Origin: a virus
Reading direction: 5' to 3' (one strand)
Virus record (IMG/VR): IMGVR_UViG_3300045988_073124
DNA: 18,780 nt
In this document: positions 105 to 18,780 of the stretch, piece by piece
Position numbering within the stretch: position 1 is the stretch's first letter
Layout of the letters: every line of letters starts with the position of its first letter
Made by a program: the position numbers and the translations under genes
Notes under the pieces: model-generated
Databases searched by the model: none
Told to the model about the DNA's origin: nothing
Seen by the model: only the letters and a program-made list of their open reading frames with translations

Positions 105-133
105 ATTATATTTTTTTTACGTCTGCCTGTCAA
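105..133 (-). promoter_or_regulatory. Outward-facing consensus promoter TTGACA-17-TATAAT (left ITR copy)
   Basis: On the minus strand, TTGACA is at 133-128, followed by a 17-nt spacer and TATAAT at 110-105. This is a 12/12 match to the sigma70-type consensus and points toward genome end 1. Confidence 0.5.
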
Positions 134-4380: not shown

Positions 4381-5832
4381 ATGACCAGGCAAGATAAAAG
4401 AGTGGGATTGTGGTGCGCGGATAACGTCATACGCTTCACGGACGGCACCGTCCTGCGTGACGTCACCGCGCCTGACTGCCTTCTGGCGTACATCATGTCA
4501 GGCGGCAAACTCACTATATACGTGACCGACCCAGACACTTTAGATCCGTTTATTGCGCACGTCGTACACTCATTGCCCCACAACGAACACAATGCTAATC
4601 TGAGCTGGGACGCCATCATCTCGAAAAAAGGCAAATTTTTCAGCTTCACGGTGCGTATCGACCGTGAGAACTCGGCACGATTCTTCGACGTTTCCAACCT
4701 GTTGCGAGAGAATTGCCGTATCACCATGACCGGTACGCAATTGCTCAACATTCTGCGCGAATACGATAGTCGCGGTTTGTGCAAGATCACGGCGGGTGGG
4801 GCGAGCATGGAGGCTTTCGCGTCCGGCGAATGGAAATGGTATTACGACAAATTCCCCCAACTCGAAACCGAAACCAAAAAGTCATTGCATGACGCCTATA
4901 TCGGCGGTTTCATGATCGCAAGAGAAGGGGCGTATGGCAAGGCCATCGACGTTGACTGCAATAGCATGTATCCGAGCATATTACGCGATGAATGGCTCCC
5001 GTGGGGCGAACCCGAACCGTACGAAGGCGACTATGAGGAAGATAGCGACATGCCATTGCATTGCGATGAACTCACGTTTCGTGCGGAATTGAAGCCGGAC
5101 GGATACCCCTTTTTATTGGACAATCGCAGTATATACGGACTCAACCGGCTCACTTCCACTCGCGGATATGTCACGCGCGTATTGACCGACATTGACCAAC
5201 AGCTTTTATACGAGAATTATGACGTGAACGTCTACAAGCACGTTAGAGGGTGGAAATTCCGCCGCTCCAAGGGCTTTTTTCGCTCGTTCGTCGATGAATG
5301 GGGGGGGTTGAAGCAGAAGGCGACGGGAGAGAAACGGCAGATGGCGAAACTGATTATGAACGCGCTCGTCGGTAAGATGGCGAGTCTACCCAAGGGTTCC
5401 GTCATGCTCCCCACCTCCAAAGACGGCGTTACATTGGACTGGGACGTCGCGCAACGTGAGGAATCGAATCTGAAAACCGACTATCTGCCCGTGCCCGTGT
5501 GGGTCAACGCCTACGCACGCCGCAAGCTTATGGACGTGTGCCATGCGAACGCCGATCGGCTATTGTATGCGAATACGGACGGTTGTATTTTGAGCGGTTG
5601 GGAGCCGGTGGAATCATGCGACATACACCCGACCGAACTTGGCAAGTGGAAAATCGCCGCACGATATGAGAAGTTGACTATCCTGGGTATGAACCGGTAT
5701 CAGGGATGGAGAGAAGACGGAGAGGTTGACGTCTGCATGGCCGGAAACATGTTTTCCCAGCCCATCCCCTACGAGAAGTTTAGGCATGGAACGCAGATCA
5801 TGGATGATTACGGCACAATGGTCATGCTATAA
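4381..5832 (+). CDS. Family-B protein-primed DNA polymerase, 483 aa
   Basis: Motifs align to phi29 DNAP: ITAGGASM ((S/T)Lx2h), YIGGF (YxGG), DCNSMYPS (motif A), KLIMNALVGK (motif B) and YANTDG (motif C). There is enough spacing between motifs A and B for a TPR1-like insertion. Confidence 0.9.
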   Translation: MTRQDKRVGLWCADNVIRFTDGTVLRDVTAPDCLLAYIMSGGKLTIYVTDPDTLDPFIAHVVHSLPHNEHNANLSWDAIISKKGKFFSFTVRIDRENSARFFDVSNLLRENCRITMTGTQLLNILREYDSRGLCKITAGGASMEAFASGEWKWYYDKFPQLETETKKSLHDAYIGGFMIAREGAYGKAIDVDCNSMYPSILRDEWLPWGEPEPYEGDYEEDSDMPLHCDELTFRAELKPDGYPFLLDNRSIYGLNRLTSTRGYVTRVLTDIDQQLLYENYDVNVYKHVRGWKFRRSKGFFRSFVDEWGGLKQKATGEKRQMAKLIMNALVGKMASLPKGSVMLPTSKDGVTLDWDVAQREESNLKTDYLPVPVWVNAYARRKLMDVCHANADRLLYANTDGCILSGWEPVESCDIHPTELGKWKIAARYEKLTILGMNRYQGWREDGEVDVCMAGNMFSQPIPYEKFRHGTQIMDDYGTMVML

Positions 5833-5833
5833 T
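5825..5833 (+). promoter_or_regulatory. Extended -10 promoter element TGcTATAAT
   Basis: Perfect TGnTATAAT overlapping the polymerase stop codon. Confidence 0.45.
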
Positions 5834-5839
5834 ACTTGT

Positions 5840-6008
5840 GTCTTCCTGAGCGTCGATTTTCGACTGGGAGTAACATGGGTCGGACTGCCACGGCTGAGAA
5901 TGCCGCCGACTGTGAACATCACTATCGTGGCGGTAGTGCCCTACGATTTTCAACTCGCGCTCACATGGGACGTTTCGACCCCGCGTGATTGCGGGGTCAT
6001 TTTATTTT
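5840..6008 (+). ncRNA. Candidate structured non-coding RNA of about 170 nt (possible prohead/packaging RNA analogue)
   Basis: Bracketed by the promoter at 5825-5833 and the intrinsic terminator at 5977-6008. Hand-paired hairpins: 5852-5864, 5879-5910 and 5924-5947. A long-range helix pairs 5847-5852 with 5958-5963. The only internal ORF is 37 codons with a tight SD spacing. Confidence 0.4.
5977..6008 (+). terminator. Rho-independent terminator
   Basis: GACCCCGC (5977-5984), loop GTGATT, GCGGGGTC (5991-5998), then ATTTTATTTT. Confidence 0.8.
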
Positions 6009-6017
6009 CCCGTCGCA

Positions 6018-6026
6018 TGATATAAT
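6018..6026 (+). promoter_or_regulatory. Extended -10 promoter element TGaTATAAT (late operon)
   Basis: Perfect TGnTATAAT about 36 nt upstream of the scaffold gene ATG. Confidence 0.5.
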
Positions 6027-6061
6027 TTTAGTGGAACTATTGCCAATTGTTAGGAGTTTGT

Positions 6062-6349
6062 ATGGCAGACCCAGATAATGACGGCGAGGAAACCACCACC
6101 CCGCCGCCGACCGAAGAGGAACGGAAGACTGAAACCGTCGATGACGAAGTAAAACCGAAAGAACCCGAGCCGGAACCGGATCTGACCCAGGAGCCGGACG
6201 TTTCCGCACGCCTTGACAGTATCGAAAAGGAATTGGCCGCATTGAAGGCCATGATGGACACGCTCGGCTACAATGACCCCGCACCGTCCGACAATGACGG
6301 CGACGGAGACAATGACAGCACCGAGTCCATCGAAGATTTGTTCGACTAA
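6062..6349 (+). CDS. Putative scaffolding protein, 95 aa, very acidic
   Basis: ATG at 6062 is preceded by TAGGAG. The protein is D/E/P-rich with a short helical core (ARLDSIEKELAALKAMMDTL). It lies directly upstream of the capsid gene and is similar in size to phi29 gp7. Confidence 0.6.
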   Translation: MADPDNDGEETTTPPPTEEERKTETVDDEVKPKEPEPEPDLTQEPDVSARLDSIEKELAALKAMMDTLGYNDPAPSDNDGDGDNDSTESIEDLFD

Positions 6350-6367: not shown

Positions 6368-8083
6368 ATGTCCAATATTCGACCATTGGCCGGCAAGGGC
6401 GACGTTGAGATCTTCAACGCCGTCCGAAACGCCACATCCCCCCAGTTCCAAACCCGTATCCCATCGGCAACGCAGGGCAATATTAGGAACGCGGTGGACA
6501 CCATGCGCAATTTCCCCTACCTTCGTGATGAGTTCACCGGCGTACTCATCCAGAGACTTATCGGCCTCTATATCCAGCACGCCGACTGGGATGACCCGCT
6601 CAAGCTGATCGGCTCCCCCCGCACCCTCAAGCGCTACGGCTCCACCTATGAGCAGGCCGCCGTTGGCCTGGTCAAGGCACGCACCCGTAATTTTAATAAG
6701 GAATATTTGGGCGACGATGTTTACGGTCGTTACAGTCTGCCGACTGCCTCGGTGTTCCACCCTCTGACTTTTGACCATTATTACCCCGTCACCATTCCGG
6801 AAGACGCTTTGTTGACTGCGTTCGACGGTGAGTCGGGCATGTCGGACTATATCGCTGAGATCATGAACGCGCCTATCCTCTCGGATAGGAACGATATGTA
6901 CTTGATGAAGACTCAGACGTTTGCCGAGTACGCTCGTAAGGGTGGTTTTTACCGTGTGCATACCCCTGACGTTGGTAAGGCCGACTCGACCGAAGCGGAC
7001 GCGAAGGGACTACTGCGCCTCATCCAGCAGACGGCGAACGAACTCAAGGCGTCCCCAATGAGCGCCATGCCCCGATATAATGCCATGAGTTGGGTGACGC
7101 CGTGGCGCGATAGTGAAGCGATCTTGTTCGCCACTCCGCAGGTGATCGCCGCGCTCAACGTGGAAGCATTGGCCGCCGCGTTCAACATTGACAAAGTCAA
7201 CGTGCCGTACCGTATCATTCCGATTCCGGAGGATATGTTCGGCATCGGCGGACAGGGCGGCAAGGTTCAGGCCGTGCTCACCACGGAAGACTTCTTCTTC
7301 TGCTGGGACGAAATGCTGGAGACCACCAATTCCCCCGTGAACCCGATTGACGGCACGCGCAACATTTTCTACAAGCACCGCGGCTCCATCACCCCTAACC
7401 CGTTCGCGAACGCGATTCTCTTCTGGACCGGTGAAGGCTCCAACGAGTCCGTGACTCTGCCGGATACGCTCACCACTTCCACGCCGGTATTCGAGTTGCG
7501 CGTGCGGAAATACGGTCAGTCCGCCATCACTCCGCAGAACGTGTCCCGTGGCGATCTCGTCCAGGTGGTGTCCACCATCACGAGCGCCAACGAGGAGACT
7601 GCGACGTTCCAGCCAACAGGCATCAAGTATGCCATCGAGGGCGCAACCAGTCAGTTCACCACCATTGATAACGACGGAATCCTTCGTTGTGGTTTGGATG
7701 AAACCGCCGAAACGCTTAAGGTCACCGCCCAGGCTACCTACATCAATCCGGCTACGCCTGAAATCGACCAGACGGTTTCCGCCGCGCTCGATGTGCCGGT
7801 CGTCGGCACTTGGCTCGGTGGTTGGAAGGCCGGCGCCATCGAGTCTCTTGAGATTCAGGGCGAAAAGTCGGTCAAAGTGAACGGCCATGTGGCTCTTAAG
7901 GCGATCGCCACCAAGACGGACGGCAACACCGCGGACGTGACCAATCTCGCCATGTGGACGGTGGACGCCCACGCGACCATCACCCCCAACGGAGTGTTGA
8001 CCGGAACCATAGCGGGCAACGCCAACGTCACTGTCAAGTTTGCGGGAGCCACTGGAACGGCAAAGGTCACCGTCACCGCATAG
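6368..8083 (+). CDS. Major capsid protein (phi29 gp8-like) with two C-terminal Ig-like (Big_2-type) domains, 571 aa
   Basis: Several blocks match remembered phi29 gp8: EIFNAVRNATSPQFQTRIPSATQGNI, DEFTGVLIQRLIGLYI, EDALLTAFDG...YIAEIMNA, ALAAAFNIDK and NPFANAILFW. The C-terminal 78 aa have the typical Big_2 pattern (...VTA ending). Confidence 0.9.
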   Translation: MSNIRPLAGKGDVEIFNAVRNATSPQFQTRIPSATQGNIRNAVDTMRNFPYLRDEFTGVLIQRLIGLYIQHADWDDPLKLIGSPRTLKRYGSTYEQAAVGLVKARTRNFNKEYLGDDVYGRYSLPTASVFHPLTFDHYYPVTIPEDALLTAFDGESGMSDYIAEIMNAPILSDRNDMYLMKTQTFAEYARKGGFYRVHTPDVGKADSTEADAKGLLRLIQQTANELKASPMSAMPRYNAMSWVTPWRDSEAILFATPQVIAALNVEALAAAFNIDKVNVPYRIIPIPEDMFGIGGQGGKVQAVLTTEDFFFCWDEMLETTNSPVNPIDGTRNIFYKHRGSITPNPFANAILFWTGEGSNESVTLPDTLTTSTPVFELRVRKYGQSAITPQNVSRGDLVQVVSTITSANEETATFQPTGIKYAIEGATSQFTTIDNDGILRCGLDETAETLKVTAQATYINPATPEIDQTVSAALDVPVVGTWLGGWKAGAIESLEIQGEKSVKVNGHVALKAIATKTDGNTADVTNLAMWTVDAHATITPNGVLTGTIAGNANVTVKFAGATGTAKVTVTA

Positions 8084-8103: not shown

Positions 8104-8142
8104 AATAGGTGTGGATAGACTTTATCCACACCTATTATTTTT
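8104..8142 (+). terminator. Rho-independent terminator/attenuator after the capsid gene
   Basis: AATAGGTGTGGATA (8104-8117), loop GACTT, TATCCACACCTATT (8123-8136), then ATTTTT. Confidence 0.8.
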
Positions 8143-8153
8143 AGGAGGGTTTT

Positions 8154-10394
8154 ATGAGCGCAAACGATCTGCCTATAAACTTCAGCTATGCGAAATGGAC
8201 ACCAAACACACGGTTCAAACTCTGCAACGTGCCGTGGGACATGGGCTATAGGGATATCGTAAAATGGGACAGACCGGCTCAGCAAGAGTATTTCAACCAA
8301 CTGGACGGCATCGAGTTCACAAACTGCACCATGTCGAAATACGGACTGCCGGTACGACTGCCCGTGCCGTTCGCCCAAGCGTGCCGGTACAATTATCTGA
8401 TCGCGACGAACGACTATGATTTTGATACCCCCCGCAGTTGGTATTATTTCATTCAGACATGCGACTACATCAACGCCAACACCACACAGTTAAACATTCA
8501 GCTTGACGTGTGGCAGTCATTCCAGCATGATATTCAATTGGGCAACGCATATGTGGAACGCGGCCATGTGGGGATTGCGAACGAGAACGCCTGGAAAGAC
8601 TATGGGAAAACGTATCTGGATCTTCCCGAAGGACTCGACACCGGCAAATGCACCGTACTCACCGACGAAGCTTGGAAACCACTCATGGATATTGGCACTC
8701 ATGATGGCGTGAAATATACATCCTACGGGCTGATCATCGTAAGCACCACCGATCTGGAAGCCGATACGGGCACCAAGGATAATCCGGTGGTCAACACCGC
8801 CACCGGTAGTGCGTTCGAAAGTCAGCTTAATGGCACATCCATGTACTATTTGGACACTCCGGCCGATATTGTCACATTCTTCACCGAAGGCATGAGCGCA
8901 CCATGGGTCACGCAAGGCATTTGCGGCATTTACGCCGTACCGCATTTGCCGCAAGCGTTGTTGGACGGTCAACCGAAAAAAACGGAACTCTTCGGACATT
9001 CCGTAGGTTTTATCGGCAATTGTTGGGAACTACGCAAAAGAAACGACAATAGCAGCGCACGCTACACGGACGTCATCAACCTCAAAAACTTCCGAAACGC
9101 TTTCCAGTTGCCGGAACGCTACAAGTATCTGAAAAAGTTCCTTACAGCGCCCTACGCCTATATCGAATGCTCGTGCCTGAATGGTACCGTGATCACATAT
9201 GAGCCGGAACAGATTCCAAGCGCTGATCTGATTATCCGTGAGTCGTGGAATTACGCGCCACCTTCCCCGCGCTTGAATTTCTACGCGCGCGGATATCATG
9301 CGGGAAGCCTTGGCGAACGTCAGCCATTGACGGACGGTAAAGGTTTGCCTATCGATACGGGTGAAATGCTTAACGCATCCTTTGGCATCACGAATTTCCC
9401 CACCTTCATGGCGGTAAACAACGGTTCGGCTTTGGCTCTTGCAAACAGCGCGTACACGCGCCAATACGCCCAGCAAAGCGCGGACTGGAGTTTCCAGAAA
9501 ACGCAAATGGGCATTAACAACGCCTACGCTCAAGCACAATTGGGCACGCAGTACGCAAGCGCCCAAAACCGGCTCGGCACATCCAACCGCAACGCCATGA
9601 ACGCGATCAGCAACCAGGCCGCGCAGATGGGTACCGATCTGACGTTGAAGAATCTCGGATTCAACAATCAAATGGCTCAGATCAACACCATCGGATCTGG
9701 TGTGGCGAACGCGGTGGGTTCCGCAGTCACGGGCAATGTTGGTGGCGTGGCCGGAGCCATCGCGGGTACCGCTATCGGCGCGTGGACAAACCAGATGACT
9801 TACGACAACAATGTTTCGACTGCGAACCAACAGTTGGCGAACACGCAAACCACCAACAACGCAAGCACTTCACAGGCCAACGCCTACAGTCTCGCACAAA
9901 CCAATCTATCCAACCAACAGACCATGCAGCTCGCGGACATGAACCGGCAACTCGCCCAAGCCACCGCGCAAGGCGATTACGAGAACACCATCGCCGGCAT
10001 CAACGCACAGGTGCAGCAGACCCAAACCGTACCACCCACCACGTCCGGCGCACTGGGCGGTGACGCTTTCAATCTTGCCAACGGTTTGATTGGCGTCCTG
10101 GTACGCTTCCGGCAGATACCCCCAGCAGCCATGCAAGCCATCGGCGAAGTATGGCTACGATACGGGTATTACGTGCAACGCTTCATGAGGTTGCCGACGA
10201 ATTTGATGGCCATGAGCAATTTCACCTATTGGAAACTGCACGAATTGTACGTGCGTAGCTCGACGTGCCCGGAAGAATACCGGCTTACAGTGAAGGGAAT
10301 TTTCGAGAGTGGCGTGACGGTGTGGACTGATCCCGACAAGATCGGCGTCACCGATTATGCGGACAATACGCCATTATCCGGTATCGCATACTAG
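8154..10394 (+). CDS. Tail knob / distal tube protein (phi29 gp9-like), 746 aa
   Basis: The N-terminal third matches the remembered gp9 pattern: RFKLCNVPWD..., YNYLIATNDYD...WYYFIQTCDYINANTTQLNIQLDVWQSF...YVERGHV. Its position after the capsid gene matches phi29. Confidence 0.75.
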   Translation: MSANDLPINFSYAKWTPNTRFKLCNVPWDMGYRDIVKWDRPAQQEYFNQLDGIEFTNCTMSKYGLPVRLPVPFAQACRYNYLIATNDYDFDTPRSWYYFIQTCDYINANTTQLNIQLDVWQSFQHDIQLGNAYVERGHVGIANENAWKDYGKTYLDLPEGLDTGKCTVLTDEAWKPLMDIGTHDGVKYTSYGLIIVSTTDLEADTGTKDNPVVNTATGSAFESQLNGTSMYYLDTPADIVTFFTEGMSAPWVTQGICGIYAVPHLPQALLDGQPKKTELFGHSVGFIGNCWELRKRNDNSSARYTDVINLKNFRNAFQLPERYKYLKKFLTAPYAYIECSCLNGTVITYEPEQIPSADLIIRESWNYAPPSPRLNFYARGYHAGSLGERQPLTDGKGLPIDTGEMLNASFGITNFPTFMAVNNGSALALANSAYTRQYAQQSADWSFQKTQMGINNAYAQAQLGTQYASAQNRLGTSNRNAMNAISNQAAQMGTDLTLKNLGFNNQMAQINTIGSGVANAVGSAVTGNVGGVAGAIAGTAIGAWTNQMTYDNNVSTANQQLANTQTTNNASTSQANAYSLAQTNLSNQQTMQLADMNRQLAQATAQGDYENTIAGINAQVQQTQTVPPTTSGALGGDAFNLANGLIGVLVRFRQIPPAAMQAIGEVWLRYGYYVQRFMRLPTNLMAMSNFTYWKLHELYVRSSTCPEEYRLTVKGIFESGVTVWTDPDKIGVTDYADNTPLSGIAY

Positions 10395-10450: not shown

Positions 10451-11392
10451 ATGGGCAAGCGCAACAACGCGCGTAAGGCCGCGCACTGGGACAATCAAAG
10501 CGTGCTCGGCTCCATGTGGGGCAATCTTAATCTCCCTGAAATGCGGCAGTCACTGCGCATTAACCAGTATATGAAGCTGATTGAAATGTTGGCAGTGTCG
10601 CGGTTCAAATGGATCAACCTTCCCCCGTACATTGATGAAAGATATTTGGAACTGACTCTTTTTGAGAACGGTTTGGCGCTCTTTTTCCCCGACAAACGTA
10701 AGGGTGTACACCGTTTTATGGTCACGTCGGGTAATATCGGCGGAGTCAACAATTATAATAATCCTACGCTTTTTCAGCCCGTAGCCACGAACTACTCGCA
10801 CCCGCAGGTCGGCTCGAAGGAATGCGTGCCGATCTGGGATAACCAACTTCGTTGCACCATGATTGACGTCATGTGGAATTACGCCACACGATTGGCGATT
10901 GCCGACCGTGCGCTCGACGTGAACCTTGACAATATCAGCGTGCCGTTGATTATCGCCACGTCCGAAACCAACAAACTCACCGCCCAAAACCTCATGAAAG
11001 CGCGTGAAGACGGAGACCCGTACATTTACACCTACGACAGTGCGGATATCACCGGCATGTTCCAGACATTCCCCAACGTCACCCCATTCCTTGCCGATAA
11101 GATCATCACCACGAAAACCCAGATCTGGAACGAACTCGTAAACTACCTGGGAATCGACAACTCGACCACCGAGAAGAAGGAACGACTGCTCGAATCTGAA
11201 GTCACGGCGGGCAACTCACGTACGAACGTGTTCCGCCTGAGCTACTTGAAGGCGCGTCAACAGGCGTGCGACACGATCAACCGACTGTGGCCGCAAATGG
11301 CCGACTCCGGGAAGCCGATCGGCATTGAATGGAACGACACCACTTCAGGCGGACTCCTGGACGTTGACGGAAACAAGGAAGAGGAAAACTAA
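10451..11392 (+). CDS. Portal / upper collar connector (phi29 gp10-like), 313 aa
   Basis: Matches include FKWINLPPYIDERYLELTLFENGLALFF against gp10 [28 protein letters not shown], and KTQIWNELVNYLGIDNSTTEKKERLLESEV against gp10 [30 protein letters not shown]. I chose the ATG at 10451, with AAGGA about 10 nt upstream. GTG at 10442 is the alternative start. Confidence 0.9.
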   Translation: MGKRNNARKAAHWDNQSVLGSMWGNLNLPEMRQSLRINQYMKLIEMLAVSRFKWINLPPYIDERYLELTLFENGLALFFPDKRKGVHRFMVTSGNIGGVNNYNNPTLFQPVATNYSHPQVGSKECVPIWDNQLRCTMIDVMWNYATRLAIADRALDVNLDNISVPLIIATSETNKLTAQNLMKAREDGDPYIYTYDSADITGMFQTFPNVTPFLADKIITTKTQIWNELVNYLGIDNSTTEKKERLLESEVTAGNSRTNVFRLSYLKARQQACDTINRLWPQMADSGKPIGIEWNDTTSGGLLDVDGNKEEEN

Positions 11393-12204
11393 TGGTACAA
11401 AACTTGAGCATGTACGCCATCAAAGACAGCATGGCGGATTACACCTTGACACTCGGCAATCTGATCGCACGCGGTTTCGACACGGATGAAAAACTGCACT
11501 TGAGCGCTCAATATTATCCGATTTTCGACGAAAACTATAGAGCGAAATTGAACGAGAAAATCGTAGCCCACTACGCATTGCGTGAAATCGGTTCGGAAAC
11601 GCCGCAAATGTTCGTGTTTTATCTGGGGCGTACCATGCGGGAGCAGATGGACTATTTCAACCAACTCTATCTGTCCGCGCAACGCAAGTTCGACCCGTTC
11701 ATCACGTCCGACATTCGACAGGAAATGGACTCGACCAGTACGAACGAGTCCAGCGGAAAATCGAGCGGCACACAATCGAACGAGTCTACGGCGAACAGCA
11801 CGTCCGATACCACCGCCGACAATTCCAGCATGACGTTCAACAGCGAGTTCCCGCAGACCCGTATAGACGATTTTCGCAAGTACGCCACCACCGCAAGCCA
11901 GACGGATTCCACCGGCAACACGCATACGGCAACCCAGCAGGACAGCACCGCCACCGCAACCAGCACCAGCAACACCGACTATGCGCACTCCTCCGATAAA
12001 GGAAACAGCACGTCGCACACCCTCGGCACCAGCGGATCCCAATCCCAACTCTTACAGGACTGGCGTAACACCATGCTCAACATTGACATGATGGTCATCA
12101 ACTCGCTCGAAGACCTCTTTTTGGGCATGTGGGGCAGTGGCGACAACATGACCAACGTGCCACAGCTTTACAGCACTAGTCTCGCCTACAATCTCGGCCA
12201 CTAG
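11392..12204 (+). CDS. Putative lower collar protein (phi29 gp11 position), 270 aa
   Basis: TAATG overlap with the portal gene. The size and position match gp11. The central region is S/T/N-rich and low in complexity. Confidence 0.6.
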   Translation: MVQNLSMYAIKDSMADYTLTLGNLIARGFDTDEKLHLSAQYYPIFDENYRAKLNEKIVAHYALREIGSETPQMFVFYLGRTMREQMDYFNQLYLSAQRKFDPFITSDIRQEMDSTSTNESSGKSSGTQSNESTANSTSDTTADNSSMTFNSEFPQTRIDDFRKYATTASQTDSTGNTHTATQQDSTATATSTSNTDYAHSSDKGNSTSHTLGTSGSQSQLLQDWRNTMLNIDMMVINSLEDLFLGMWGSGDNMTNVPQLYSTSLAYNLGH

Positions 12205-12975: not shown

Positions 12976-13158
12976 ATGAATGAAAACGACGAAAACCGCG
13001 ACATGTACGAGCACACCACAACTTATAGTCTGCCCCTCTACACCGACGATACCCCGTCCGATCTGCGCGACGGATATAATCGGGCAATGGTGATGATCGA
13101 CCGACTCATACACCAACTCGAAACCCTCATCCGTGAAACCAAAGGAACAAACCAATGA
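12976..13158 (+). CDS. Small fibre-module protein, 60 aa, paralogous to the N-terminus of the next gene
   Basis: ATG at 12976 is preceded by GAGAGGAAG. It shares the motif Y.L.LY.D..P.DLRDGYN..M..ID with the product of 13155-14615. There is an ATGA overlap with the next gene. Confidence 0.65.
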   Translation: MNENDENRDMYEHTTTYSLPLYTDDTPSDLRDGYNRAMVMIDRLIHQLETLIRETKGTNQ

Positions 13159-14615
13159 CCACTATCTACGACAAAACCGACAATTACGGACTGAATCTTT
13201 ACGGCGACAGTGACCCCGCCGACCTGAGGGACGGCTACAACGGATCCATGCGCACCATTGACTCCACGCTCGAAACGCACCTCAATCGCATCGAGGGTGT
13301 AGAGTCGCGTGAAACGCATGATGAGGAAGTGGTCAAAGCGCTGGTTGGTAATAATACGGTGGACAATGCCACCGCAAGTAAGGCCAAATGGGATAAAGCC
13401 GGTACCGACGCCACCGCCGCCGCCGCAGCGGCCGCCACAGCCGCAGGTAAGGCCGACAACAATAGCGCCATTCTCGCCGCGCTCGGCGCGGACACCACCG
13501 CTCACGCCACCGACGCGAAAGCCAGGTGGGATAAAGCAGGAGTGGACGCAACTACCGCAATCGGCAAAGCCGACGCGAACAAAACCATCCTCACCGCATT
13601 AGGGGCCGATACCACCGCGCACGCCACCGCAAACAGAACGAAGTGGGATAAAAACACTACGGACATTGCCACACTATCCACCTCAGTTGGCAGTAATTCC
13701 GCGCAGATTGCGCAGATTCTGGAAAAACTGGGGCAAGCGCAATATGAGGATGGATATCTCGTCACGTTCGGTGACTCGTACGCCGACAGCACGCAAAAGG
13801 AGCATACGTGGTCATACCAATTGTCCACCATGTTTCCGGAATTGCAGTGGAAAAACTATGCGAAGAGCGGTGCCGGTTTCAACGTGTCCGGAATTCCGAC
13901 GTTCGCCCAGCAGGTCGCCAACTGCGTGGCCGATACCAGTGTGGACAAAGCTAAAGTCAAGGTTGCCGTTTGCGCAGGCGGACGTAACGATATCCTGGAC
14001 TACAGCACCGGACTAACCAAGGCACGTGACGTAGTTGTGGCGATGAAGACGGCGTTTCCGAACGCGATTATCGTGATCGCCCCAATGCTCTTCGACCATG
14101 CCACTCTCGACGAAGGGGGAATGCGGAAATATTACGCACTGCTCGGCGGTGCGATCACCGCCGCGACCGGAAACCGTCGCGTCGTGGTGGCGGACAGCGC
14201 CTACGTTTGGTGCAAGGGCGAAGACAGTTGGTTCCCGTCGGGAGACATTCACCCTAACGAGACTGGAGCCAAGGCTATCGCGAAATACCTCTACACGGCG
14301 TGCCGGGACAGCTACCGCGGCCGACATGCGTACGCCGTCTCCATGCTCGGCTCCATGCCGGTGGAGTTCACTCTGCAAAACGGCGTTATCACGGTAGACG
14401 GACAGGGCGATATTCCATCAATCGGAGAGGGCAAGGGCGGAATCATGGCGAAATGGGCGTATCCACGTCATAACATTTGGCCATGGATAGTCACAGGTGG
14501 TTCCACCAACACTCCGCGGCTAGGGTTCATTCAGACAGACGGAGTCTGGGGAGTATATAATCCGACTGTATCCGACCAAGGCCATGCGAGCTTCATGGCA
14601 TCCTACGCCGCCTAG
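13155..14615 (+). CDS. Tail fibre / appendage protein with an SGNH (GDSL) hydrolase domain, 486 aa
   Basis: N-terminal anchor motif, then repeats of roughly 40-48 aa (aa 72-175). SGNH blocks are present: FGDSYADS (GDS at 13770-13778), GGRND and GDIHPNETG. Confidence 0.75.
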   Translation: MTTIYDKTDNYGLNLYGDSDPADLRDGYNGSMRTIDSTLETHLNRIEGVESRETHDEEVVKALVGNNTVDNATASKAKWDKAGTDATAAAAAAATAAGKADNNSAILAALGADTTAHATDAKARWDKAGVDATTAIGKADANKTILTALGADTTAHATANRTKWDKNTTDIATLSTSVGSNSAQIAQILEKLGQAQYEDGYLVTFGDSYADSTQKEHTWSYQLSTMFPELQWKNYAKSGAGFNVSGIPTFAQQVANCVADTSVDKAKVKVAVCAGGRNDILDYSTGLTKARDVVVAMKTAFPNAIIVIAPMLFDHATLDEGGMRKYYALLGGAITAATGNRRVVVADSAYVWCKGEDSWFPSGDIHPNETGAKAIAKYLYTACRDSYRGRHAYAVSMLGSMPVEFTLQNGVITVDGQGDIPSIGEGKGGIMAKWAYPRHNIWPWIVTGGSTNTPRLGFIQTDGVWGVYNPTVSDQGHASFMASYAA

Positions 14616-14632
14616 TCTCCGATAATCCACAC

Positions 14633-14665
14633 ATAGCCATGCCACTATAATAATGGCATGGCTAT
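14633..14665 (+). promoter_or_regulatory. 12-bp-stem hairpin whose loop contains TATAAT and whose 3' arm contains the start codon of the tail lysin gene
   Basis: ATAGCCATGCCA (14633-14644), loop CTATAATAA, TGGCATGGCTAT (14654-14665). TATAAT is at 14646-14651 and ATG 14658 lies 7 nt after it. There is no SD. Confidence 0.4.
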
Positions 14666-15883: not shown

Positions 15884-15943
15884 TGATAGTGGCGGTGGTT
15901 ATGTGATGACCTTTCCCTTGAACAGCCGCCAGATGATAGGTTG

Positions 15944-15979
15944 GTGGAGGGCGTGCGAGTCATGGCGCACGCCCTCCAC
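15944..15979 (+). other. GC-rich stem-loop with a 14-bp perfect stem in the leader of the packaging ATPase gene
   Basis: GTGGAGGGCGTGCG (15944-15957), loop AGTCATGG, CGCACGCCCTCCAC (15966-15979). There is no U-tract, and the SD AGGAGG follows at about 15988-15993. Confidence 0.7.
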
Positions 15980-16001
15980 TAGTTTCAGGAGGTTTGCAAT
16001 C

Positions 16002-17069
16002 ATGACATTGCAGGCGCTTGACGAGGGCGATTATTACGATCTGCATAATCTGTTGACGCGAAACGCTCCATGGAATTTCATAATCGGCGCACGCGGACTC
16101 GGCAAAACGTTCGCCGCGAAACGGTATGGCATCAAGGAATATCTGAAACACGGCCACGAGTTCATTTATTTGCGCCGTACGGACGTGGAACAGCACCGCA
16201 AGGAAACGTTCTTCAAGGACATTCAAGAGTTCTTCCCCCAATACGAATTTCGCGTGAATGGTGAAAAAGGGCAATTGCATAAGACGTCATGGGATGAAAA
16301 GGACTGGAGGACATGCTGTTATTTCGTTGCCCTCTCGCAAGCAGGCGGCTTGAAGTCAGTCGCCTACCCTAAAGTGCACTTGATTATCTTCGACGAAATA
16401 TTCCCCGACAATCTACGCTTTTTAAGCAATGAAGTGAACTCGTTCAGCGAGTTCTACAATACTGTGGATAGGTGGCAGGATAGAACAAAAGTACTATTCC
16501 TCTCGAACGCGGTTCAAAAAGCCAATCCGTATTTCGCGAAATACCGGCTCGACATTGGTTCCCAGCAGGCCAATCAACAACAATACAAGTTATATTGCGG
16601 GGGGTTCATCTGCTTAGAATTGGCCGACTATGGCGGATTCAGTGCGAAAGTCGCACAATCCAAGTTCGGCAAATTCCTTGAGCAGTACGACAGCGATTAC
16701 GCCGACTATGCGATCAGAAACAAGTTCCGCGATGAGTCGGACACGTTGCTAGCGCCAATCCCCAGCGATGGCGAACTCTCCTACGTGCTGGACACTACCG
16801 ACTACGCGCGGTTTGGTATTTGGGTTTCCGTGTCCGAACGCGACGGACATGTTTCACAATACGTTTCACGACGTATTCCAAAAGACAACACACGTCCCGT
16901 CTACACGCTCGACCCGAACCATGTAGACGAAAAAACATGGTACGTCAAAAAATCGGATGATATCATAAGACGACTCACCACCGGCTATCGACTTGGCAAA
17001 ATACGGTTCGACGACTCACAAGTAAAAGCCGACTTTGGCTTAATCATAGGAGAACTACTAGGAAAGTAA
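16002..17069 (+). CDS. DNA encapsidation ATPase (phi29 gp16-like), 355 aa
   Basis: Matches include WNFIIGARGLGKTFAAK (Walker A, against gp16 LNFVIGARGIGKSYAMK), GHEFIYLRR, YPKVHLIIFDEIF (Walker B) and FLSNAVQKANPYF. I chose the ATG at 16002 with AGGAGG 7 nt upstream, so the track ORF starting at 15903 is trimmed. Confidence 0.92.
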   Translation: MTLQALDEGDYYDLHNLLTRNAPWNFIIGARGLGKTFAAKRYGIKEYLKHGHEFIYLRRTDVEQHRKETFFKDIQEFFPQYEFRVNGEKGQLHKTSWDEKDWRTCCYFVALSQAGGLKSVAYPKVHLIIFDEIFPDNLRFLSNEVNSFSEFYNTVDRWQDRTKVLFLSNAVQKANPYFAKYRLDIGSQQANQQQYKLYCGGFICLELADYGGFSAKVAQSKFGKFLEQYDSDYADYAIRNKFRDESDTLLAPIPSDGELSYVLDTTDYARFGIWVSVSERDGHVSQYVSRRIPKDNTRPVYTLDPNHVDEKTWYVKKSDDIIRRLTTGYRLGKIRFDDSQVKADFGLIIGELLGK

Positions 17070-18145: not shown

Positions 18146-18174
18146 AAGCCCCTAGGCTCATAACCTAGGGGCTT
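18146..18174. terminator. Bidirectional terminator hairpin between convergent genes
   Basis: AAGCCCCTAGG (18146-18156), loop CTCATAA, CCTAGGGGCTT (18164-18174). It is flanked by an A-rich sequence upstream and a T-containing sequence downstream. Confidence 0.65.
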
Positions 18175-18179
18175 TACTA

Positions 18180-18425
18180 TTACCACGTCCGGGCAAACGC
18201 TTCCAAGTCTTCAGCGGAAAACAGAAGCAAATCATCATCCGTTTCATAAGGCAAAAGGAATTGATACGAATCATACTGAGCCACATCATAATCGTCAACG
18301 GCCTGATCGCGATCAATCGAACTCGTAACACCGTCCTTGACACCATGAAGCGTCACGGACGGGTCATCCCACAAAGTGGTCAGCAGTTCGTTCTTTTCCT
18401 TGAAAGTCATGTTTGAAATCATCAT
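18180..18425 (-). CDS. Hypothetical early protein, 81 aa, strongly acidic
   Basis: The ATG at 18425-18423 and its SD lie inside the right ITR, so I trimmed the track ORF 18180-18455. I count 18 D/E against 5 K/R. Confidence 0.7.
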   Translation of the reverse strand: MMISNMTFKEKNELLTTLWDDPSVTLHGVKDGVTSSIDRDQAVDDYDVAQYDSYQFLLPYETDDDLLLFSAEDLEAFARTW

Positions 18426-18459
18426 TTTATTTTTCCTTTCCCTTGAAGCGGACAACTAC

Positions 18460-18468
18460 ACCATAACA
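18460..18468 (-). promoter_or_regulatory. Mirror copy of the TGtTATGGT element upstream of the right terminal gene
   Basis: The same sequence as part of the ITR, upstream of ATG 18425 on the minus strand. Confidence 0.3.
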
Positions 18469-18647
18469 CAAACAAACAGGCAACACGCCCAAAAACAAAA
18501 CAAAACAAAAAAATAAAAGACAGTTACCGGCCGGACGGTAAGTAAGCTACGGTTACGTAACCGTAACTTAGCCAGACATGGATTGTTGCATATACAACCA
18601 TTGACACAGTGTCAATAAAAAAACGACACGCCCAAAAATAAAAAAAA

Positions 18648-18676
18648 TTGACAGGCAGACGTAAAAAAAATATAAT
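18648..18676 (+). promoter_or_regulatory. Outward-facing consensus promoter TTGACA-17-TATAAT (right ITR copy)
   Basis: TTGACA at 18648-18653, spacer GGCAGACGTAAAAAAAA (17 nt), TATAAT at 18671-18676. An ATG at 18683 lies 7 nt after the -10 hexamer. Confidence 0.5.
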
Positions 18677-18780
18677 AGAGGCATGAACAAAACAAAGCAC
18701 CAAGGACCACACAGAACAAAAAAAAATAATACACAAATAAAAAAAACCACAAGGGAAAATCTTCACACAAACCCACACCC

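Follow-up and report, generated by a model that had tools for sequence, protein, structure and literature searches.

The complete linear genome of a phi29-like Bifidobacterium phage, IMG/VR record IMGVR_UViG_3300045988_073124 (18,780 bp; the whole stretch analysed, hereafter the window), carries a conserved, non-coding, structured RNA unit between its protein-primed polymerase gene and its late operon, as is firmly shown by comparison with its homologues. Given the architecture of this unit, its genomic context and the partner proteins encoded in the same genome, we consider it probable that this small non-coding RNA gene yields a divergent prohead (packaging) RNA, or pRNA, the sole known RNA component of a viral DNA-packaging motor.

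The RNA unit and its fold

Homologues of the RNA were gathered using a 14-mer from the invariant core, a gapped pattern applied to IMG/VR and metagenomes, and a scan with a polymerase profile. From the first 24 sequences we built a covariance model (R1), which gave a single match per genome and no other match in the window, where it scored 139.6 bits at 5844-5966. The final alignment (A7) contains 89 sequences, 88 of them distinct, and includes four divergent members at 82-105 bits. A7 was fitted to R1 and its pair counts therefore lean toward the model fold; a MAFFT alignment of 26 sequences served as an independent control. Conservation of the flanks was counted on 85 distinct flanks, and that of open reading frames (ORFs) on 67 distinct sequences. 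Promoter, RNA, terminator and second promoter are retained together in approximately 85-89 related gut-phage genomes.

The fold of domain I (Table 1) is well supported by these alignments. In A7, 26 pairs were changed on both sides, compared with 11.9 +/- 1.8 in column shuffles (0 of 500 reached the observed number), and every helix of the fold held at least one such pair. When partner columns were slid by one to three positions, pairing dropped to 28-54%. In the independent MAFFT alignment, 98.3% of cells were paired and 12 pairs were changed on both sides. The rod formed by helices P0, P1, P2 and P3 amounts to 22 bp, interrupted, which join the 5' and 3' ends of the domain and show compensatory changes in all four helices. 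P0 occurs in the compensated variants GUUUC/GAAAC, GCCUU/AAGGU, GUCCU/GGGAU and GUUCU/AGGAC and begins exactly at the predicted transcription start, so that the RNA has its 5' end base-paired to its 3' region. The inner U.U positions of P2 become Watson-Crick pairs in the homologues L251, L273 and L234, the last of which also carries the one G-C to A-U double change seen in P3. A single branch point is present in the consensus structure, with covariation in each of the stems that meet there. Furthermore, the segment CUGAGAAUGCCGCC (5894-5907) was invariant in the first 26 homologues, and within the larger set it is altered only in a handful of divergent sequences.

The 3' end of the one-sided bulge in the C/E arm is complementary to the D loop, and this additional helix is paired in 97% of cells across the 88 distinct sequences. 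At its outer pair, 5887-5931, we counted GC in 72 sequences, GU in 9 and AU in 7, with the pair broken in none. A at 5887 was found solely with U at 5931, changing GCCAC/GUGGC to ACCAC/GUGGU (Fisher p = 1.8e-6, phylogeny ignored), and this covariation appeared on five different D-helix backgrounds. The GCCAC/GUGGC complement is a candidate intermolecular kissing or pseudoknot pairing.

The unit is bounded by two extended -10 promoters, the first serving the RNA and the second the late operon. Judging from the motif, transcription is predicted to start at G5840, at +7 from the -10 element, and to give an RNA of about 167 nt (approximately 5840-6006). The genome contains five copies of the motif TGNTATRAT (at 1181, 3312, 5825, 6018 and 15875), always on the coding strand and just upstream of a gene or of the RNA unit, compared with 0.82 copies expected; none of 200 shuffles reached five. 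These five motifs look like the promoter set of the phage, and one lies immediately upstream of the gp16 ATPase gene. The upstream -10 element is retained in 84 of the 85 distinct flanks of relatives and the downstream promoter (TGNTATRRT) in all 85. The GUGAUU loop of the terminal hairpin is kept in 83 of 85 distinct relatives, while the stem beneath it changes by compensatory substitution. This hairpin, which ranks second among the terminator-like sites of the window, forms with its U tract an intrinsic terminator that looks constitutive. It probably also forms the 3' domain of the RNA, since the conservation of its loop and the presence of similar loops in two of the sister clades described below (D and E) suggest an RNA domain and not a stop signal alone. 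The word GAUU is shared by the GUGAUU loop (5985-5990) and by both copies of CGAUUUUC in the rod (5854-5861 and 5944-5951), and may be a repeated protein-binding word.

The original prediction had described a promoter-to-terminator unit, and this description is borne out by the motif enrichment, by the conservation of both promoters and the loop, and by the covarying hairpin stem; the positions given for the promoters, the polymerase stop, the hairpin and the U tract were all correct. Of the hand-drawn structure, two helices stood. Covariation confirms the predicted helix H2 (5879-5883:5906-5910 and 5891-5894:5902-5905, enclosing the 7-nt bulge ACUGCCA), and the long-range helix is upheld in the form 5848-5853:5957-5962, although its proposed outermost pair, U5847-A5963, is not retained. 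The remaining two, H1 and H3, proved to be inferior alternatives incompatible with the better supported P2, P3 and D hairpin. They are still pairable in 99% and 95% of cells, respectively, with a few double changes, a local hairpin (5853-5856:5860-5863) being the alternative to part of P2; however, the H1/H3 fold is less stable in all 89 sequences (mean -26.4 versus -33.3 kcal/mol, about 7 worse). H1 and H3 may represent a conformational switch. The terminal helix P0 and the complementarity between bulge 5887-5891 and D loop 5927-5931 had been overlooked in the drawing.

The unit is non-coding. A 37-codon ORF (5875-5988) with GGGAG near its ATG had been put forward as a coding alternative, and it is not conserved: the ATG is retained in 31 of the 67 distinct sequences, being replaced elsewhere by ATA, ACG, ACA, GGT or GTG, the length from the ATG position is spread over all three frames, frameshifting indels occur, and in-frame stops are found in 31 of 67. 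A trivial explanation, in which the region is an early-operon terminator plus two promoters with spacer DNA between them, or else this small protein gene, is for these reasons very improbable. Terminators between early and late genes are common in relatives, and the ORF with its nearby GGGAG is present in the window; however, the supposed spacer is among the most conserved DNA of the alignment and carries compensatory changes in every helix, so that covariation already contradicts the spacer reading, while the ORF fails on its start codons, frames and stops as just described.

Table 1. Features of the RNA unit, of its genome and of related loci. Positions refer to the window unless another genome is named; a colon separates paired strands.
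Feature	Position	Strand	Sequence	Remarks
Protein-primed type B (family B) polymerase	4381-5832			profile search
Extended -10 promoter of the RNA	5825-5833	+	TGCTATAAT	overlaps polymerase stop TAA, 5830-5832
Domain I	5840-5971	+		132 nt; rod, three-way junction, two arms
P0	5840-5844:5967-5971	+	GUCUU:GGGAC	5/5 pairs in all 89 homologues
P1	5848-5853:5957-5962	+	GAGCGU:GCGCUC	100% paired; 3 pairs changed on both sides
P2	5855-5862:5944-5951	+	GAUUUUCG:CGAUUUUC	UUU/UUU centre, flanking pairs covary
P3	5866-5868:5939-5941	+	GGG:CCC	closes three-way junction; 100% paired
C/E arm overall	5874-5914	+
C helix	5874-5876:5912-5914 and 5878-5883:5906-5911	+		7/9 pairs changed on both sides
One-sided bulge	5884-5890	+	ACUGCCA	7 nt, 5' strand of C/E arm
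3' end of bulge	5887-5891	+	GCCAC	complement of D loop GUGGC, 5927-5931
E helix	5891-5894:5902-5905	+		one pair changed on both sides
E loop	5895-5901	+	UGAGAAU	7 nt
D hairpin	helix 5920-5926:5932-5938; loop 5927-5931	+	loop GUGGC	7/7 pairs changed on both sides; 99.8% paired
Linker	5972-5976	+	GUUUC	5 nt, domain I to terminal hairpin
Terminal hairpin	5977-5998	+	GACCCCGC / GTGATT / GCGGGGTC	stem 5977-5984:5991-5998; loop GUGAUU, 5985-5990
U tract	5999-6008	+	ATTTTATTTT	directly 3' of terminal hairpin
Extended -10 promoter of late operon	6018-6026	+	TGATATAAT	separate from RNA promoter; 3' boundary of unit
First late-operon gene	start 6062
Phi29_MCP capsid protein	6368-8083			profile search
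gp9-like tail knob	8154-10394			profile search
gp10-type connector (portal)	10451-11392	+		PF05352, E = 1.1e-39
Lower collar	11392-12204			profile search
gp16-type encapsidation ATPase	15903-17069	+		PF05894, E = 7.4e-45, profile positions 2-319 of 331
Further RNA locus, L126	13030-13260	-		just downstream of polymerase gene
Further RNA locus, L127	12660-12890	-		just downstream of polymerase gene
Bulge/complement, clade A (window)			GCCA/UGGC
Bulge/complement, clade C			CAUC/GAUG	hairpin stem covaries CGC/GCG to CCC/GGG
Bulge/complement, clade D			AUCA/UGAU	not in L200
Bulge/complement, clade E			AACC/GGUU
Bulge/complement, clade Bad			ACC/GGU	these three pairs only

Evidence for a probable packaging RNA and its possible mode of action

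The domain I fold displays the architectural features of a phi29-type pRNA: a long A helix made from both ends of the RNA, a three-way junction, a C/E arm, and a D loop complementary to the bulge of that arm. To gauge this likeness, we measured the tree-edit distance to the pRNA structure, which was 42 for the RNA. About 1,500 random 117-nt windows of the genome, each in its minimum-energy fold, gave 91 +/- 19, and only 0.07% of them lay as near to the pRNA structure; this null is a crude one.

The genome in which the RNA resides also encodes the proteins with which a pRNA works. It belongs to a phi29-like phage that encodes a gp10 connector and a gp16 ATPase and replicates its linear DNA by protein priming; perfect inverted terminal repeats of 358 bp (1-358 and 18423-18780) bound this DNA. 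The profile matches were to PF05352, PF05894, PF25622 and PF03175. The original prediction had pointed to homologues of gp10 and gp16 and to a portal with a basic N-terminus, and both are found here, in the PF05352 and PF05894 matches and in the translated connector N-terminus, MGKRNNARKAAH. This connector is the presumed docking partner of the RNA, and the gp16-type ATPase the presumed partner of its rod. Moreover, the RNA makes up the sole long non-coding segment of the genome interior, its interval (5833-6061) being the longest there without a plausible gene, and annotated relatives have a non-coding gap of about 230 bp at the equivalent place. The nearest named relatives are the Bifidobacterium phages BP1 and BD811P1-3, together with one human faecal contig, with 75-81% DNA identity around the RNA locus. 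The proposal that the unit is a pRNA equivalent at a non-canonical position is thus supported by context, by non-coding status and by the layout of the fold, although two of the four helices originally drawn for it had to be replaced.

By analogy with phi29, it seems reasonable to suggest how such an RNA might act. The extended -10 element would direct the RNA polymerase of the host to begin near G5840, and termination at 5977-6008 would release a transcript of about 167 nt. Neighbouring molecules could then join, bulge to loop, into an RNA ring on the prohead, with the invariant C/E arm docking on the basic N-terminus of the connector and on the capsid. The rods would point outward and recruit the gp16-type ATPase, which would itself be unable to bind the portal alone, and the RNA would depart after packaging.

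A different use for a stand-alone transcript would be as a trans-acting phage small RNA (sRNA) that regulates host or phage mRNAs or sequesters a protein, and whose likeness to pRNA would be coincidental. The promoter-to-terminator organisation suits such a molecule, and its binding sites could be the long invariant stretches in loops or single strands (CUGAGAAU, the two copies of CGAUUUUC and the GUGAUU loop). We nevertheless judge this improbable, since a junction fold of about 132 nt closed by its own ends is atypical of base-pairing sRNAs, and since it leaves unaccounted for a pRNA-like structure alongside genes for the proteins that partner pRNA. Complementarity to a target did not come to light either, although no search aimed at it was made.

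Sister clades and a possible late-operon leader

We identified four other groups of phages with an analogous RNA unit immediately 3' of the polymerase gene: clade Bad, the honeybee B. asteroides phages BadAargau2 and BadAztec1; clade C (L202 and L203); clade D (L200, L204-L221); and clade E (L220 and L223). R1 gave no match in the BadAargau2/BadAztec1 phages or in clades C-E, and the RNAs there were read by eye or with RNAalifold. Motif scans added no member to clades Bad, C and E, recovering only genomes already known or chance matches in coding sequence. In every sister clade a -10 element overlaps the polymerase stop codon, a closing helix starting GAG(C/U) leads into a long rod, and one arm carries, beyond its C helix, a bulge on the 5' side and a 4-bp helix capped by 6 nt. 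These E-type loops read UUGAGU, UUGGGU, UUAGGU, UUAAGU or UUGACU, and the E loop of phi29 and of the Rfam consensus is UUGAGU. In addition, the four nucleotides before the E helix (or a register shifted by one) have an exact downstream complement, whose sequence differs by clade (Table 1). Constrained at its E hairpin and bulge only, clade C adopted an obviously pRNA-like three-way junction, the rod of which measures about 21 bp. Because MAFFT placed the E helices out of register, a covariance model of the C/E arm spanning the clades was dropped. As the cross-clade folds come from few sequences and are partly hand-folded, we treat them as supportive, not decisive.

Several observations weigh against a packaging RNA. 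Its gene lies at 5840-6008 of 18,780 bp and not at a genome end as in the Bacillus phages: the phi29 pRNA gene is at the left end and is read toward that end, whereas this RNA follows the polymerase gene and precedes the scaffold/capsid genes, sharing the strand of all major genes. Rfam family RF00044 gave no match in 5700-6100 or in the sister clades, either at the gathering score or at E up to 10, and the scans of the window and sister clades at gathering and permissive thresholds found no pRNA and no other credible family; as a control, the phi29 left end returned RF00044 at 145 bits, together with the consensus structure used for comparison below. The folding energy of the core is ordinary (z = -1.3, with 19% of the genome's 125-nt windows as low), and the z of -3.0 for the whole predicted transcript is probably mostly the contribution of the terminator. 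Since thermodynamics alone is unremarkable, the evidence for the RNA is comparative, and single-sequence energy was dropped as evidence. The rod carries large internal loops, and the alternative pairings H1 (5853-5863 region) and H3 (5924-5947 region) remain pairable. Two inner bulge/D-loop pairs are broken in 8 and 5 of the 88 sequences, and the sequences fit a kissing contact in trans and an intramolecular pseudoknot alike. The folds of clades D, E and Bad are hand-made or thermodynamic and show little covariation, with almost none in clade D. Furthermore, other actinobacterial phi29-like phages, Av-1, Fairywren and Mendel, have no comparable RNA at the locus before the late genes. What they have there is a gap of 140-180 bp ending in a strong hairpin right before the scaffold/capsid genes (Av-1 L195, 4471-4611; Curtobacterium Fairywren L196, 4079-4261; Arthrobacter Mendel L197, 4934-5105), which leaves no room for a downstream promoter, so that late transcription may read through it. 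Finally, all four sister clades have neither a U tract nor a separate late promoter after the RNA, both being confined to the window's clade; the order there is promoter, structured RNA, hairpin and the first late gene's ribosome-binding site, a further promoter being absent, which makes the RNA a 5' leader of the late operon.

This sister-clade layout suits a cis-acting element at least as naturally as it does a packaging RNA. Such a leader would be a folded 5' element that binds a factor of the phage or the host, or else RNA polymerase in the manner of a processive antiterminator, and that steers read-through of the hairpin or the stability or translation of late mRNA, outside the packaging motor. 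In riboswitch-type leaders a helix usually closes a junction of several others, a loop makes a tertiary contact and a hairpin comes next, a layout that this RNA shares, and the conserved alternative pairings H1 and H3 could make a switch. Likewise, purine riboswitch-type aptamers and HK022 put resemble it in that a helix closes a three-way junction whose arms touch through a tertiary contact, with a hairpin immediately downstream, and the 5'-leader position of the sister-clade RNAs is that of cis-acting leaders. In the window's clade, however, an apparently constitutive U-tract terminator and a separate promoter, conserved in 85 of 85, stand between the RNA and the late genes. A 5' untranslated region in which terminator and antiterminator folds exclude each other, as expected of a riboswitch or cis leader, was not found in that clade, the leader position being seen in the sister clades only. 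In the alignment, the terminator stem varies without regard to the 3' strand of P0, so that no conserved antiterminator pairing is seen, and the switched H1/H3 fold is, as noted above, consistently the less stable one. No Rfam cis-regulatory family was matched, and the part-by-part agreement with pRNA and the E-loop motif are left unaccounted for. Taken together, we consider a cis-acting leader unlikely. A packaging RNA could be reconciled with the sister-clade arrangement if it were freed from the leader transcript by partial termination or processing.

The remainder of the genome offered no competing pRNA. No pRNA-like RNA was found at the genome ends in the window, where two candidates were examined and rejected. 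Each terminal repeat contains a perfect TTGACA-17-TATAAT promoter facing outward to the genome end (133..105 on the minus strand and 18648..18676 on the plus strand), which would yield a run-off transcript of about 100 nt that is A-rich and apparently unstructured. A promoter plus terminator on the minus strand at the right end brackets an ORF of about 90 codons on that strand, which we take to be a protein gene. Strong terminator-like hairpins also occur after the capsid gene (8104-8136) and after the gene at 13155-14615 (14633-14665), and a bidirectional one (18146-18174) lies between the end of the plus-strand operon and the convergent minus-strand ORF 18180-18455. An A-rich stretch at 2690-2890, around the gap 2811-2873, holds several small hairpins (z = -4.4). 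The capsid protein has 571 aa, of which the Phi29_MCP domain spans residues 17-353 only; some close capsid homologues (among P0050, P0060, P0090, P0099 and P0105) have a Big_2 (PF02368) match, which recalls the Ig-like domain of phi29 gp8.

Implications and comparison with known packaging RNAs

In the literature, reviews describe pRNA as unique to Bacillus phi29-like phages (PMC11476376, PMC5066667), and a 2024 review of phi29-like phages lists BD811P1 while presenting pRNA as a feature of phi29 and related Bacillus phages (PMC11476376). We found no account of the RNA described here, and the only non-Bacillus precedents found were the unvalidated predictions for Streptococcus Cp-1 (PMC6266182) and Av-1 (GenBank). 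We lean, if only slightly, towards a broader view in which prohead RNAs exist beyond the Bacillus phages, as an Rfam-undetected family between the polymerase and late genes in at least five clades of Bifidobacterium phi29-like phages that shares common descent with the phi29 pRNA, with RNA-dependent packaging being ancient in the phi29-like lineage. Were this so, the shared E stem-loop UUGAGU would point to common descent, and the location of the RNA inside the late-operon leader in most clades would couple RNA supply to structural-protein synthesis. A second, highly divergent family in abundant phages of human-gut Bifidobacterium would show the limits of RNA drift at constant architecture, bear on whether pRNA is ancestral to the lineage, account for the docking of gp16-type ATPases in non-Bacillus relatives, and supply new self-assembling modules of three-way junction and kissing loop for RNA nanotechnology. 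Current covariance models miss such RNAs, and the availability of isolates (BD811P1-3, with B. dentium DA811 as host, and BP1, with B. pseudocatenulatum U19) makes the proposal directly testable.

The pRNAs predicted for Cp-1 and Av-1 are likewise proposals outside Bacillus, but they are based on foldability and lie near a genome end. Covariation support for them was not found, whereas 88 distinct homologues and four sister clades stand behind the window's RNA. A published pRNA covariance model failed to identify the reported Cp-1 pRNA reliably (PMC6266182). For the Actinomyces phage Av-1 (L195), GenBank records a partial 'packaging RNA' as a misc_RNA at 16295-16402, near the right end and over ORFs of the opposite strand; it bears no resemblance to the window's RNA.

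The closest likeness is to the pRNAs of the phi29 family (phi29, PZA, B103, Nf/M2, SF5 and GA-1), which, like this RNA, occur in small phi29-type podoviruses with a gp10 connector and a gp16 ATPase. Known pRNAs share structure, with only about 12% of their sequence in common (PMC5066667). The RNA of the window shows no detectable similarity to the phi29 pRNA in sequence or by covariance model, and differs from it in the larger internal loops of its rod, its UUU/UUU block and its repeated CGAUUUUC, as well as in the actinobacterial host and the GC content of about 55% of its phage. Like the phi29 pRNA, it has its own, here predicted, sigma-A-type promoter, a domain I of about 120-130 nt closed by its ends into a rod of about 22 bp, a three-way junction, and a 3' hairpin domain after a short linker. 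Part by part, the A helix has 22 bp in the phi29 (Rfam) consensus and 22 bp here, followed by 1 unpaired nucleotide before the C helix in phi29 and 5 here; the C helix has 9 bp and one bulged nucleotide in both; the 5'-strand bulge has 9 nt in phi29 and 7 here; the E helix has 4 bp in both, with a loop of 6 nt in phi29 and 7 here; 3 unpaired nucleotides separate C from D in phi29 and 5 do so here; and the D helix has 6 bp in phi29 and 7 here, capped in both by a loop of 5 nt. The complement, too, lies in each RNA between the final nucleotides of the bulge and the D loop, as AACC/GGUU with 4 bp in phi29 and the GC-rich GCCAC/GUGGC with 5 bp in the RNA of this phage.

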